Of a DNA stretch of 58,298 nucleotides, positions 1 to 54,781 are shown one piece after another; positions within the stretch are counted from its first letter, which is position 1, and each line of letters starts with the position of its first letter. The DNA comes from an uncultured bacterium (GTDB lineage: Bacteria > Cyanobacteriota > Vampirovibrionia > Gastranaerophilales > Gastranaerophilaceae). The notes beneath the pieces are model-generated. The model was not told the DNA's origin and ran no database searches. It was given only the letters and a program-made list of their open reading frames with translations. Position numbers and translations under genes: made by a program. The stretch spans positions 1 through 58,298 of the forward strand of contig URXH01000001.1 of the NCBI GenBank assembly GCA_900551675.1. The letters are read 5' to 3'.

Positions 1-67
1 CTTAATGCCCTTCCTTAAGCTGGAAGTGCCCCCCCCCCGACATTCTTGAATAATCTAATCTTTCCAT
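1..67 (-). CDS. 5' end of a putative phase-variable prepilin-like gene (runs off window; closed at current G10)
   Basis: ATG at 67, SD GAGGAG at 76-81. Reads MERLDYSRMSGGGHFQLKEGH*. The 28 nt after the G tract match 23/28 to the same region of the pilin leader at 16605, and the N-terminus resembles MKRADYSRV at 54618. The pilin domain itself is not visible. Confidence 0.55.
29..38 (-). repeat. poly-G10 tract (coding strand), slipped-strand candidate
   Basis: C10 on + strand, flanked by G on both sides. Confidence 0.9.
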
Positions 68-110
68 AGTTCTTGCTCCTCTTATTAATTCTTGCTACAA
101 TATTAATTTA

Positions 111-138
111 ATTATAACATATTTTCTAATATTATCAA
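111..138 (-). promoter_or_regulatory. sigma70-type promoter of the edge pilin-like gene
   Basis: TTGATA-N16-TATAAT with extended -10 TG. Confidence 0.6.
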
Positions 139-182
139 TATTGTTTTTATGGTAAATTTATCTTTGGTTAGGAGATAGTTTC

Positions 183-1304
183 ATGAAAAAAATAATTATA
201 AGTTTATTTTTGATTACGGGACTTTTTGTACAGGTCTGCAATGCAGAAGAAAGCAAAGTAGTTTTGCCGTCAGAAACAGGAATTGTTGAAAATATTAAAT
301 ACGAAGATGCAGAAGGGTTGAATCAGGGAGAAGAAACAACCAAACAGGCTGTTACTGTCAGAGTGCTGACAGGAGATTTCAAAGGTACTGAAAGAATTAT
401 TGATAATATGCTGACTGGAAATCCTGCCTATGACATTAACCTTTCAAAGGGTGATAAGGTGGTTTTGCATGCAGAACCTGTGTCAGAAACTGTTTCGACA
501 GCCGATGATGTGGATTTCTTCATAGCAGATATTAAAAGAGATAACCAGATATACGTCTTTACAGCAATATTTTTTATACTGTTACTGCTTACAGGTAAGA
601 AAAAAGGCTTAACAAGCATTATTTCAATAATTTCAACAATAGCGCTTGTATTTTTTATGCTAATGCCAATGATTTTAAGCGGGTTTTGTCCGATTGCCTC
701 AGCAGTGCTGACAGGAATACTTTCAACCCTGATAACAATTTATCTTGTCGGCGGGTTTAACTCAAAAAGCTCATCTGCCATTATCTCAACCGCAATAAGC
801 CTTATTTTTGCAGGCGGACTTTCAATGCTTGCGATATATTTTGCTCATCTTACAGGATTTGCCGGAGAAGAACCTATGTTTTTATATACGGCAAGACCTG
901 ATTTAAGTTTCACAGGAATTTTGTCTGCTTCAATGATTATAGGAGCACTTGGAGCCTTGATGGATACTGCAGTATCTATTGCAAGCACCGTCAATGAAAT
1001 TTATGAAACCGACAAAACTCTTTCAATAAAACAGCTTTTTAAATCAGGAATGAATGTAGGACGTGATATTATAGGAACAATGTCAAACACTTTAATACTG
1101 GTTTATCTGGGAAGTTCACTACCTCTTGTTCTTCTGTCAAGTAATATTGACATGAACAAATTTTTTAACCTTAATCAGGTCGCAACAGAAATTTTATCCG
1201 CACTGACAGGAAGCATTGCAATCCTTATCTGCGTACCAATTACGGCAATAATAGCAGCCATTTTAATCAAACAAAGCAAAGAAAAAATTGAATTTAAATT
1301 TTAA
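183..1304 (+). CDS. YibE/F family membrane protein
   Basis: Signal peptide, multiple TM helices, motifs IIGALGALMD and GMNVGRDIIGTMSNTLILVYLG. Confidence 0.85.
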   Translation: MKKIIISLFLITGLFVQVCNAEESKVVLPSETGIVENIKYEDAEGLNQGEETTKQAVTVRVLTGDFKGTERIIDNMLTGNPAYDINLSKGDKVVLHAEPVSETVSTADDVDFFIADIKRDNQIYVFTAIFFILLLLTGKKKGLTSIISIISTIALVFFMLMPMILSGFCPIASAVLTGILSTLITIYLVGGFNSKSSSAIISTAISLIFAGGLSMLAIYFAHLTGFAGEEPMFLYTARPDLSFTGILSASMIIGALGALMDTAVSIASTVNEIYETDKTLSIKQLFKSGMNVGRDIIGTMSNTLILVYLGSSLPLVLLSSNIDMNKFFNLNQVATEILSALTGSIAILICVPITAIIAAILIKQSKEKIEFKF

Positions 1305-1429
1305 CCAAGATTGCTAACTAATACTGTTTCATAAGAATTTGAGCCTGCTTTCTGGTATGCCCAGGTAACTTCATCAAATGGCACATTATATCTTGGAATA
1401 GTACCGTCGCTTAAAGCAATACTTATTAA
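1301..1429 (-). pseudogene. start-less 3' gene remnant
   Basis: Open frame LISIALSDGTIPRYNVPFDEVTWAYQKAGSNSYETVLVSNLG* with an in-frame stop just upstream and no start or SD. Confidence 0.35.
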
Positions 1430-1460
1430 TTAAAATACGTAAAAATATTTTTTTGCTATT

Positions 1461-51882: not shown

Positions 51883-51885
51883 GAT

Positions 51886-52878
51886 TTAATACTCGTCATC
51901 TTCAAGTCTTGCGCGTCTGATAATTTCAGGATCTATTCCGCGTTTTTCTATTTTGAAAGTTTTTGCCGTAACTTTTTTAGAGGCTTTCTTTTTAGGTCTT
52001 CTCTCCTCATAATCTTCACTGTCAGATGCCAGATTGTTATACCAGAGAGTCCAGCAGATACTTCTTAGCGGAAGCGTAAAACCAACAACAATAAAAAATA
52101 TTATCTGGTTTACCACTTCTTTGCCGATAACAATAGGAGTAATTCCAAATCTTTCAAAATGTTCTACAGGGAGGGAATAAGCCCAGCTTTCAAATACTTT
52201 GGCAAGTTTAGCAGTCAAATTCAAAGCATCAAATATTACGCTTAATCCTGATGTTAAAAGATAATAAGTAAAAACAACCAGCAGTATCATTAAAAGAAAT
52301 GTTCTTGCAAATCTTCCTTTTACAAGCTGCAAACTTCTCCTGAAATAACCTACAGGTGATAAGCCGTTTTCAAATGTAAATACCTGAAAAATCAATATAA
52401 AATAAATAAAAAATATAAAACCTATTATCCAGAATAGAGGAATAAGAGATACTAAAGTGAAAACGCTAAATAAAAGCCACAGTGCAATATATGAAAAAAC
52501 CTTTTTCGAAACAACAGAATTATGAGCTCTGAAATCATATACCCTGCCGGTATTCAAATATCCGTCAGTCATAGAATTCAAAGCGCCATAAGAGACAAGA
52601 TAATCCCAGAATGCCCTTGCCCATATCAAAAGCCCGGGTATAACAGAAAGAATTATACAAATAAGCATTGTTGAAATATCATTCATTGCAGGATATTTTA
52701 CAATCAAATTCTGGAAATTTTGTGTATACCAGTAAGTAATCCCGAAAATCATGAACAACCCCAGCAACTGCCCTAAAACAGGAAATGCCATATACAAGAA
52801 AAATTTATGAATATTCAATGCATAAATTTTTATACCTTCAAAAAATAGAACCCAGACGCTTTTATCTTCTTTTGCCAT
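51886..52878 (-). CDS. hypothetical multi-pass membrane protein
   Basis: Several TM helices; FRRSLQLVKGRFARTF. Confidence 0.75.
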   Translation of the reverse strand: MAKEDKSVWVLFFEGIKIYALNIHKFFLYMAFPVLGQLLGLFMIFGITYWYTQNFQNLIVKYPAMNDISTMLICIILSVIPGLLIWARAFWDYLVSYGALNSMTDGYLNTGRVYDFRAHNSVVSKKVFSYIALWLLFSVFTLVSLIPLFWIIGFIFFIYFILIFQVFTFENGLSPVGYFRRSLQLVKGRFARTFLLMILLVVFTYYLLTSGLSVIFDALNLTAKLAKVFESWAYSLPVEHFERFGITPIVIGKEVVNQIIFFIVVGFTLPLRSICWTLWYNNLASDSEDYEERRPKKKASKKVTAKTFKIEKRGIDPEIIRRARLEDDEY

Positions 52879-52931
52879 ATCTCTCCTGTTTTAAAATCTC
52901 ATATTTATTGTATAATAATTTTATTACAAAT

Positions 52932-53549
52932 ATGCAAAAATTTACAAAAGAAGATTTTTTAAACAATAAAGTTAATTTACATTTACACACCAAATTTTCT
53001 GACGGCGAAGGGGATGCTCAGGATCTTGTGAGCCAGGCTGTTGAGAAAGGTTACAAAAAAATAGCCTTCTGTGATCACAACACTTTAGAAGCTTATCACA
53101 AAACAGACATTTTAAAGTACGATATAGTCTTGCCTGCCGTTGAATTTGATGTCTGGTGCGGTTATGTTTTTATGCATCTGCTCGGTTACGGGATTGATGT
53201 TAATAACAAAGAACTTTTATCTTTCTGCGCTAAAAATAAGAAAGAAACAGAACTTGATATAGTGAGAATTTTGGCAAAACGCGATATTAAAAAGCTGATA
53301 AAGGCAATACATAATGCAGGCGGAATTGCAGTGCTTGCCCACCCAGCCTGCTGCTGGGCTGTTAATTTAGAAGAATTTATAAAAAAATTAATTTCATACG
53401 GTCTTGACGGGCTTGAAGTTTATTACCCCTACAAACGCCACAGAGGAATAATAAAATTCCATAAAGCATCAACAGTTGAAAAAATTGCTGATAAATATAA
53501 CCTTATAAAAACCGGCGGAACAGACTTGCACGGCACTTATTTAGATTAA
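52932..53549 (+). CDS. PHP domain phosphoesterase (TrpH/YciV-like)
   Basis: LHLHTKFSDG, CDHN, HLLGY, LAHP, TGGTDLHG. Confidence 0.9.
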   Translation: MQKFTKEDFLNNKVNLHLHTKFSDGEGDAQDLVSQAVEKGYKKIAFCDHNTLEAYHKTDILKYDIVLPAVEFDVWCGYVFMHLLGYGIDVNNKELLSFCAKNKKETELDIVRILAKRDIKKLIKAIHNAGGIAVLAHPACCWAVNLEEFIKKLISYGLDGLEVYYPYKRHRGIIKFHKASTVEKIADKYNLIKTGGTDLHGTYLD

Positions 53550-53551
53550 AT

Positions 53552-54618
53552 CTACCACGGGTAATCAGACCTTATTTCCCAGCCGTCAGCCATTATCAAG
53601 GCTGCACACCACATACCGCGCCCCTGCTTGTTACACTGATAATTGTTAGCACTGGGACCGTCCCGAAATTCATCTCGGGTGCGAACAACAGCAGAAGACT
53701 CATTATCATCATAAGACATTGGTCTTACTCCTTTTTCGGTAACTGACAACGAAAATAAATCTCTTCCAAATTTATTAGGACGCTTAAATCCGTTTAAATC
53801 TATTGTAAAACTCTTTCTCTTTATACTAAGAGCTGAAGTTGAAGGAATTATACTATAAGCAAAAATTTGAGTTCCTGATGGCAAAGTTATTATTTCCGCA
53901 TTATCATACAAATGGATAAGCCCTTTTTCTTCAGCACCTGATGTCCCGTAATATTTTATTCCATGCTGTCTTGCTGTACCGACAGTCGTGTTGGATATTT
54001 CCATATAAGATGATAAGTACTTTTTGAAAAAATCGGAGCTGCTTATAGAATAATCCCATAAAGAAGGATCACCGTATTCAAATTTCGCCATTTCCGCTGC
54101 CTGTGATAATTCCGAATATACTTTCTTTAACTGAGTTACGGTCTGTTTTTTCTGATAATTAGTTATCAAGGAAGGCATTGTCATTGCAGCAACTACACCG
54201 ATAATGCCAAGGGTTATTAAAACTTCTGCCAGAGTAAATGCAACTCTACGAATATCGTTAAAGTGGACTACGTGCGTAGCACCTTCTGCCAGAGTAAACG
54301 CGGATTTTTTATGAGGTGAATAAGTCGGTTTCGCACCATCTACTTTGGGTGAGGGATGATTTACTGCCATAGTGCCATAGTATCTTAGCAGCTGAATAAA
54401 TACATGCCATCTAATGACACCATCACCAAAAAGAACAAGAGATTGAATATTAAGACCTGTCATAGCGCGCATGGTGCGCGATCTTTTTAGGATAAATTTC
54501 AGATTGCGTAATAAATGCACAATGACATTAATGTAAACAACCTGACTTCCTGACTTCTTGCCCTCTGCTAACTGAGAGTGCCCCCCCCCCGAACTCTTGA
54601 ATAATCTGCTCTTTTCAT
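53552..54618 (-). CDS. type IV prepilin-like gene, phase OFF (G10; G11 restores the frame)
   Basis: ATG 54618 with SD GAGGAG reads MKRADYSRVRGGGTLS*; adding one G joins it to the 53552..54520 ORF (RRVA|FTLAEVLITLG...CAALIMADGWEIRSDYPW); promoter TTGAAA-N17-TATATT at 54662-54690. Confidence 0.85.
54223..54298. repeat. 16-bp direct repeat duplicating the FTLAE codons
   Basis: CTTCTGCCAGAGTAAA at 54223-54238 and 54283-54298. Confidence 0.85.
54541..54556. repeat. 8-bp tandem duplication in the pilin leader
   Basis: CCTGACTT x2. Confidence 0.7.
54581..54590 (-). repeat. poly-G10 tract (coding strand)
   Basis: C10 on + strand. Confidence 0.9.
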
Positions 54619-54781
54619 AATTTCAAACTCCTCTTATTATTATAAAAACTATTATATAAACAATATAACATATATTGTTTTATATTTCAATAAATAACTT
54701 AATATTTTATGCTTTTTCAAACCGTTTGTTTTATAATTTTTAAAGATAGTTATACAGACTGAAAAAGGGAAAGAGGTTTAT

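Follow-up and report, generated by a model that had tools for sequence, protein, structure and literature searches.

The stretch of DNA analysed here (the window) is the 58,298-base contig C1 (GC content, 34.9%) of G000, an assembly of an uncultured bacterium of the Gastranaerophilaceae (1.93 Mb; 152 contigs), and it contains type IV pilin-like genes with a run of 10 or 11 G residues shortly after the start codon. We propose, with a probability of roughly 0.7, that these are slipped-strand contingency loci of the Campylobacter type, placed within a prepilin leader that would be cleaved, and that the modal tract length is the OFF length.

A portable 5' module heads about 50 type IV pilin-like genes in G000 and tens to more than 100 per genome across the genus; it is made of a sigma-70-type promoter, a Shine-Dalgarno sequence, an ATG, about nine codons and a run of some 10 G or C residues. 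The run lies in the part that prepilin peptidase would remove, so that its length would set only the access of ribosomes to the pilin frame. Under our proposal, replication slippage would add or remove one base; the modal length of 10 closes nearly every gene, one added base would open it, and each cell would express a small random subset of pilins in a heritable yet reversible manner. The data below establish the architecture, the dependence of frame on length, the spread across the genus, differing lengths at orthologous sites and purifying selection on closed genes; a useful slippage rate within populations, leader cleavage and incorporation of the products into pili are inferred.

Tracts and pilin loci in the window

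Five C runs lie on the forward strand, at 29–38 (10 bases), 16569–16579 (11), 22761–22771 (11), 38867–38876 (10) and 54581–54590 (10), where the initial annotation of the window had placed them (here, loci 1 to 5), and no further G or C run of at least 7 bases was found anywhere in the window. Read on the minus strand, all five have the form C-Gn-C, with the first G 29, 26, 29, 28 and 28 nucleotides (nt) past the A of an ATG at 67, 16605, 22800, 38904 and 54618, respectively. As that annotation had also described, every one of these start codons has a Shine-Dalgarno sequence (GAGGAG, AGGAGA or AGGAGG) and a promoter of its own: an extended −10 box (TGnTAnAnT type; TGTTATAAT, TGTTATACT or TGTTATATT) was located 27 to 44 nt upstream of each ATG. 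Its count of three tracts in frame and two closed was confirmed, with those at 16569, 22761 and 38867 open and those at 54581 and 29 followed by a stop after 16 and 21 codons, respectively.

Loci 2 to 4 are ON in the assembly. Locus 2 (minus strand, 15562–16655; −10 box, 16647–16655; Shine-Dalgarno, 16615–16620; ATG, 16603–16605; G11, 16569–16579) encodes 347 amino acids (aa) in frame, with a leader of about 124 aa, the cleavage-type motif AA↓FTLAEVL (AAFTLAEVL at residue 125; F codon from 16230), a DUF6613 body and a stop at 15562. Locus 3 (minus strand, 22060–22840; −10 box TGTTATACT, 22832–22840; Shine-Dalgarno AGGAGG, 22806–22811; ATG, 22798–22800; G11, 22761–22771) encodes 246 aa in frame, with a 21-aa leader ending in ING↓FTLAEVL (NGFTLAEVL at residue 21; F codon from 22737) and a stop at 22060. 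Locus 4 (minus strand, 38083–38946; −10 box TGTTATATT, 38938–38946; Shine-Dalgarno GAGGAG, 38911–38916; ATG, 38902–38904; G10, 38867–38876) encodes 273 aa in frame, with a 36-aa leader ending in AGG↓FTLAEVL (GGFTLAEVL at residue 36; F codon from 38796) and a stop at 38083; it is the sole G000 pilin locus open at length 10.

Locus 5 is a switch module in the OFF state (minus strand, 54440–54670; −10 box TGTTATATT, 54662–54670; Shine-Dalgarno GAGGAG, 54628–54633; ATG, 54616–54618; G10, 54581–54590). Its tract is followed by about 140 nt of repeated leader, and the G10 frame stops after 16 codons, while G11 would give 355 aa. In this assembly the switch is joined to a pilin body with a long leader (minus strand, 53552–54439; stop at 53552), which holds a remnant, AFTLAEGATHV (F codon 54298), in addition to the actual site, VA↓FTLAEVLITL (F codon 54238). 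Locus 1 (minus strand, 1–119; −10 box TGTTATAAT, 111–119; Shine-Dalgarno GAGGAG, 76–81; ATG, 65–67; G10, 29–38) consists of the 5' switch module only: the tract and the first 28 nt of the leader are present, and the gene body is lost at the contig start. At G10 it meets a stop after 21 codons, and at G11 a TAA stands in place of the TAC of locus 2, which leaves the G9/G12 frame as the only one open to the contig edge.

Four of the tracts had initially been reported to lead into prepilin genes. At locus 5, the link between the switch at 54581 and the body at 53552–54440 is probably an assembly mis-join, located at about 54440 inside a leader repeat of about 100 nt. This is suggested by two other sequences, which pair the locus 5 switch with the pilin body on contig C30. 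Metagenome contig L168 is 99.4% identical to window positions 54440–55839 and then 99.99% identical to C30 (C30:1–10725), and relative G067 also joins the locus 5 switch to the C30 body (L059 and L060 compared). In G067, the body at 53552–54440 follows the module that G000 has at C60:132–141 (C60:1–1199), with G10. A real recombinant in the window is the less likely explanation. With either pairing the tract is G10 and the gene would open at 11, and the join therefore leaves the conclusion on tract length intact. A swap of switch modules between species at locus 5 (G000 versus G067) was considered and dropped, as L168 and G067 indicate a mis-join.

Repertoire and reading frames across genome and genus

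Run lengths in G000 are bimodal, with 406, 55, 3, 4, 6, 49, 6 and 2 G/C runs of 5, 6, 7, 8, 9, 10, 11 and 12 bases, respectively; an excess of long tracts, a modal length and a dearth of intermediate lengths are all present. An independent-base model (p(G) = 0.174, p(C) = 0.176) predicts about 0.07 runs of exactly 10 bases in 1.93 Mb, against the 49 observed. The enrichment at pilin 5' ends that the initial annotation had predicted is genome-wide: 51 of the 63 runs of 9 to 12 bases sit 15 to 75 nt past the ATG of a prepilin-type gene (49 placed by a script that required a Shine-Dalgarno-preceded ATG and 2, on C16 and C54, by eye), with 5 of the other 12 in other reading frames and 7 unassigned. 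The dispersed poly-G repertoire described from the window is thus real, but it comprises about 50 loci, not five, extends across the genus, includes one class with poly-C and reaches a few genes that are not pilins.

Two module classes were distinguished. Class A (33 loci) has a TTGAAA...TGTTATAAT promoter and coding-strand poly-G about 28 nt past the ATG; class B (16 loci, about a third) has a TTGACA...TAAATAAT promoter and coding-strand poly-C 25 to 28 nt (mostly 25 to 26 nt) past the ATG. Pairs resembling −35 and −10 boxes were found at 29/32 class A loci and at 16/17 loci listed by the script as class B, those 17 including a C8 run that belongs to C146, a class A locus with two tracts. The flanks TC-Gn-CAnTnnnAGCT are common to the poly-G and poly-C classes only in the same double-stranded orientation (column-shuffle fractions, 0.0095 and 0.0265), which points to a unit at the level of DNA and not of RNA or peptide; the similarity is modest. 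Examples of these flanks are seen at window positions 16553–16595 and, flipped to the G orientation, at class B loci such as C15:12738.

FTLAEVL-type motifs number about 80 in G000, roughly one per gene. A tract precedes 30 of them by at most 1 kb, 28 are so close to a contig start that less than 1 kb precedes them, and 22 are tract-less. For about 20 tracts, the nearest contig end is no more than 150 nt away. Contig breaks were rejected as a sign of length heterogeneity, since they fall in repeated leader sequence and not at the tract; the pilin 5' repertoire explains the fragmentation of the metagenome-assembled genomes (MAGs) of this genus at pilin 5' ends. G runs of 32 bases (C14:1–32) and 28 bases (C83:14–41, preceded by a C-rich stretch) also occur at contig starts; these look like sequencing or assembly artefacts and not biological tracts.

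As in known phasomes, non-pilin genes of G000 carry the same C-G10/11-C tract (C56:4877–4886, C50:6828–6838, C49:5830–5839, C63:2840–2849 and C2:51798–51808, a list that includes a prepilin fusion). They include a GT-D glycosyltransferase gene with the tract mid-gene, a radical SAM gene with G11 that is apparently out of frame with its sole upstream ATG, and genes for two membrane proteins; the GT-D gene and the C49 open reading frame (ORF) are in frame at G10. A 668-aa frame, running to the contig end and open at G11, has a prepilin N terminus fused to YadA-head repeats and an S74 chaperone domain.

Frames were analysed at the 30 loci with assembled downstream sequence; 19 more are cut by contig ends. 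Exactly one length class joins the ATG to the FTLxE motif at 28 of the 30. Among the G000 loci, 4/4 of the 11-mers are open and 23/24 of the 10-mers are closed; all 23 closed 10-mers would open at 11, with frames of 109 to 504 codons behind them, and at the modal length closed loci terminate after 12 to 25 codons. Two loci, on C19 and C31, reach no pilin motif and are decayed members. The modal length (10) is therefore the OFF length at almost every G000 pilin locus.

As had been noted for the window, the tract lies in the leader: in every case it is upstream of the G/A↓FTLAE site, and it would therefore be removed together with the leader. Many leaders are 60 to 290 aa long with Ala at −1, which is unusual for the family and far longer than a normal prepilin leader. 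The long leaders (for example, window positions 16233–16568 and 54239–54580) are mosaics of repeated modules, yet remain open in the pilin frame. Their modules hold GC-rich hairpins such as ATCGCGCA-loop-TGCGCGAT, in which C-to-T changes preserve G-U pairs, and the leaders also hold remnants of a second AFTLAE site.

Across 60 genomes of the genus (1.6 to 2.4 Mb each), exact-length totals were 290 G9, 2,747 G10 and 253 G11. G10 is modal in 54 of them, with a median of 40.5 and a maximum of 169 G10 tracts per genome. The C-G10-C tract and a DUF6613 match were both present in 18/18 genus genomes, and neither was present in any of 12 genomes from ten other families of the order taken in the same draw; within the set searched, the trait spans the genus and is confined to it. 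In the one-contig genome G034 (first 400 kb), the sole G11 is open and 7/7 classified G10 loci are closed. Genome G046 has a third module type, in which the ATG is followed by 45 to 64 nt, including a CCCTTG...CAAGGG hairpin, and then by T-G11-C (L066–L079) with a similar 3' flank, CTTTAAGCTC. Its modal length is 11, and 12/12 classified loci are closed, 8 of them needing one base fewer and 4 one base more.

The window was found in public runs that are chicken and bird gut metagenomes; comparisons between samples rest on assembled Logan contigs of four such runs and concern consensus lengths only. The locus 4 tract is C10 in runs X1 and X5, and a low-depth contig of X9 (4.9 of 9.1) has two bases fewer at 38867, a difference that may be erroneous. 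A scan of metagenome contigs gave no match with the locus 4 pattern and one contig, L168, with the locus 5 pattern, also G10. The locus 5 module is G10 in G000, X5, L168 and G067, and the C60 module carries G10 in G000 as well as in G067. At the site between glnA and mlaE, the pilins of five other species are G10 and closed, with frames of 229 to 366 aa intact at G11. Differing lengths at orthologous loci, expected in the initial annotation, were found for the module beside the GH38 gene (G11 and open in G000; G10 and closed in G062, where 11 would give 541 aa; G16 in G067, where the gene is decayed) but not for the locus 5 and C60 modules.

Whole loci also differ between relatives. The locus 3 cassette (about 22074–22850) is missing in the nearest relative, G067, which has about 50 nt instead, and its flanking genes are adjacent in several other species too; the locus 4 cassette (37935–38976) is missing in G067 (about 110 nt instead) and in G054. 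The family is gained and lost as single-gene cassettes, from promoter to terminator. In G067, the locus 2 promoter module (window positions 16528–16590; L169, L171) stands beside the decayed pilin remnant with G16, and the locus 2 body follows a different module (G10) and borders sequence that runs uninterrupted in G000 (C21:20716–20734). The breakpoints of this rearrangement map to a pilin 5' module and to a site inside G000 contig C21. The ratio of nonsynonymous to synonymous substitution rates (dN/dS) was 0.24 for the body at 53552–54439, closed in both G000 and G067, and 0.06 (versus G067) and 0.10 (versus G062) for the locus 2 body, with dS partly saturated; these values indicate purifying selection on closed genes.

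Mechanisms weighed

Slipped-strand switching is favoured because run lengths are bimodal, because most tracts stand at pilin starts (51/63) and because the frame rule holds at 28/30 loci. Independent assemblies agree, both in the G10 mode of 54/60 genus genomes and in G034; lengths differ at orthologous sites (11, 10 and 16); and closed genes are kept. The same tract also occurs in GT-D, radical SAM and membrane-protein genes, the C. jejuni phasome provides a precedent, and prepilin peptidase and PilB/PilT-type ATPases are encoded.

Several results weigh against this interpretation. The tracts compared across samples or close relatives were mostly of the same length. Among non-modal tracts in eight genomes, 0/24 classified G9 and 9/15 classified G11 were open (a sample of 80 regions, in which 26/50 G9 and 16/31 G11 tracts were unclassified), and G9 is as common as G11 in the 60 genomes (290 versus 253), with no skew towards ON. 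The consensus data therefore give no sign of selection for open alleles, and an enrichment of such alleles among non-modal tracts, as would follow from selection on DNA length, was not found. G000 encodes MutS and MutL, unlike Campylobacter, and slippage rates may therefore be lower. Finally, a near-uniform OFF consensus is also expected from a recoding mechanism.

Such recoding would keep the DNA closed and yield a little of each pilin through RNA polymerase slippage on the 10- to 11-base run or ribosomal shifting on GGG or CCC codons; all pilins would be expressed weakly in every cell, without a heritable switch. It accords with the closed consensus at 23/24 G10 pilin loci in G000, 7/7 in G034 and 12/12 in G046, with the unchanged tract lengths between the samples compared and with non-modal lengths that show no ON skew; a run of at least 9 bases also spans the RNA:DNA hybrid, a condition for RNA slippage. 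We nonetheless regard it as unlikely. The G046 loci need a shift of −1 at 8 loci and of +1 at 4, and therefore no single ribosomal shift direction could serve all of them. Whether the message carries poly-G or poly-C, the double-stranded flanks are the same; 11-mers and one 10-mer are in frame; and G/C runs are reported to slip less efficiently than A/T runs. For the two long leaders, folding did not surpass that of shuffled sequences (z, −0.76 and +0.67), no stimulatory structure was found, and an Rfam search of the window gave no match. A programmed −1 ribosomal frameshift site in particular was discarded, given the two directions in G046 and leaders that fold like shuffles. About as improbable, in our estimate, is that the tract forms the core of a dedicated genus-specific system, the double-stranded TC-Gn-CAnTnnnAGCT being used in either orientation and kept closed at about 2,700 loci in 60 genomes. 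Pilins would then be chosen either by programmed RNA polymerase slippage, as a non-heritable per-transcript lottery over 50 to 170 pilin genes, or through a factor able to recognise the core and adjust its length.

Much less probable is a DNA-level factor acting on the same core (a site-specific recombinase, a targeted mutator or a binding protein), with plain replication slippage not being the whole mechanism. The flanks are kept in both orientations relative to the gene, the G046 module has a similar 3' flank, and synteny breaks between G000 and G067 coincide with pilin 5' modules; however, one of these breaks is probably a mis-join, and the likeness of the flanks is modest and could reflect common descent. 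Each locus has a single tract and no good flanking inverted repeat: around the four complete window loci, only AT-rich pairs of 71 to 86% and two terminator hairpins were found, and no recombinase is encoded among the 45 ORFs neighbouring the window loci. An inverton or shufflon was rejected on these grounds, and the absence of a visible recombinase or silent cassettes, already remarked on at first inspection, held for the surroundings of all window loci. A reading of the closed genes as pseudogenes, decaying members of an expanded family that happened to break at the tract, is very doubtful. Most loci are indeed closed and some members have decayed (the G16 locus in G067; C19 and C31 in G000), but 23/23 closed G10 loci share a one-base deficit at the same place, followed by 109 to 504 open codons, dN/dS is 0.06 to 0.24 and the pattern recurs in 54/60 genomes. 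Equally hard to credit is homopolymer miscalling, by which the true length would be 11 everywhere and under-called in assemblies. Long G runs are error-prone in sequencing, and about 20 tracts lie close (within 150 nt) to contig ends; yet the same mode is found in 54/60 genomes (contig names of relatives, such as k141, k127 and NODE, indicate that more than one study and assembler are represented), in the one-contig genome G034 and in Logan contigs of other samples. The G046 mode of 11 is likewise closed, and the GT-D gene and the C49 ORF are in frame at G10.

Known systems, encoded proteins and neighbouring features

Most known homopolymer contingency loci come from a small number of pathogens, such as Campylobacter, Helicobacter, Neisseria and Haemophilus. 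The mechanism belongs to a known class; the new elements are the host lineage, the scale, the focus on one pilin family and its leader, the three-form module on both strands and the rule that the modal length is OFF. In agreement with the initial suggestion of novelty, no homopolymer-gated pilins were found described for Melainabacteria or Gastranaerophilales in the open full-text literature (supplements and papers that are not open lay outside its scope). Programmed transcriptional slippage and −1 frameshifting resemble the present case in having a run of at least 9 bases in an ORF and a functional frame one base off. Examples are dnaX, insertion sequence (IS) elements and endosymbiont poly-A runs, mostly with A/T, in single genes and in one fixed direction; here, the runs are G/C on either strand, both directions are needed (G046) and in-frame alleles exist. 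In Neisseria, the pilC tract lies in the part of the gene that codes for the signal peptide.

The Campylobacter jejuni survey (PMC3401435) gives 11 to 29 tracts per genome, a modal length of G9, 64 to 95% of tracts at G9 or G10 and a dearth of G5 to G8, and its authors ascribe the modal length to mutational patterns. The two phasomes are alike in belonging to low-GC bacteria of the chicken gut, in bimodal runs with a sharp mode and almost no G7 or G8, in tracts that lie mainly within reading frames and set ON/OFF by frame and in weak conservation of loci between genomes. Loci are more numerous here than in C. jejuni (median 40.5 and up to 169 G10 per genome, versus 11 to 29). Here they are also concentrated in one paralogous pilin family and its predicted cleaved leader, the modal length is OFF nearly everywhere, about a third have their poly-C run in the coding strand, MutS and MutL are encoded and promoter, start and tract form a portable module.

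For Neisseria pilC1 and pilC2, a genic G run of 9 to 20 bases that switches the gene is reported (PMC5953494, citing Jonsson et al. 1991). A pilus-related gene is there, too, switched by in-frame poly-G, but pilC is a pilus-associated adhesin and retraction modulator in one or two copies, whereas here dozens of complete pilin genes each have a switch. The pilE/pilS system serves the same apparent end, a pilus surface varied from a large pilin repertoire (PMC5953494). It works by gene conversion from promoterless silent cassettes into one expression locus, unlike the full genes with their own promoter and start described here; neither silent cassettes nor a recombinase were seen beside the window loci.

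In an uncultured lineage of commensals, the sister group of the photosynthetic cyanobacteria, a very large switch repertoire appears to operate, nearly all of it on one pilin-like family. If the switching is true, it would show pilus variation in a gut commensal that needs neither silent cassettes nor invertases, would offer a natural case in which every switch rests OFF and would caution annotators that the "frameshifted pseudogenes" of this genus, which run to dozens per MAG, are probably functional. If instead the tract is the core of a dedicated system, working by an RNA polymerase lottery or a core factor, it would be a new way to run a surface-protein repertoire.

The tract genes are predicted to encode type IV pilin-like proteins of the prepilin type, as first annotated; Pfam searches placed N_methyl and DUF6613 on the window proteins. 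Scores for PF07963 (cut-off, 21.2 bits) are above the cut-off in two of the four window proteins (loci 2 and 4; 25.4 and 25.0 bits) and below it in the others (loci 3 and 5; 20.5 and 17.5 bits), while the NCBIfam prepilin-type domain TIGR02532 is above its cut-off in three of four (loci 2, 3 and 4). The DUF6613 match of locus 2 scores 62.7 bits. Residues F22, E26, G32 and P43 are invariant across 68 sequences. An AlphaFold model of the locus 3 protein (68 natural sequences; predicted local distance difference test score, 84.8) has an N-terminal helix of about 50 residues (24–75) on a beta sheet. A Foldseek search against the PDB gave nothing at E ≤ 0.001, with a FimA pilin as its top row, and the top four rows of VIA-align were the pseudopilins and pilins GspK, PilA5, PilX and PilE (Z, 5.8 to 5.0, a middling level). 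G000 encodes Peptidase_A24 (prepilin peptidase) on C104 (38.8 bits) and PilB/PilT-type ATPases, the T2SSE matches including a 673-aa frame with 426 bits.

Some frames of the window gave no Pfam match at E ≤ 1e-5, namely, a 1,219-aa ORF at 2909–6568 (minus strand) and the ORFs at 18691–19890, 35657–37147, 37147–38022 and 51886–52878. The neighbours of the window loci are housekeeping genes, as had been stated at the outset: trigger factor, ClpXP, GH38, glnA, mlaE, dapA, secDF and others. Locus 2 is flanked by the trigger factor gene (14185–15477) and the GH38 gene (16678–18657), and locus 3 sits between glnA and mlaE. A further pilin-like gene (plus strand, 7120–7680; N_methyl and DUF6613), with a short leader and without a homopolymer tract, is one of the 22 tract-less FTLAEVL-type genes, for which at least 1 kb of upstream sequence is present.

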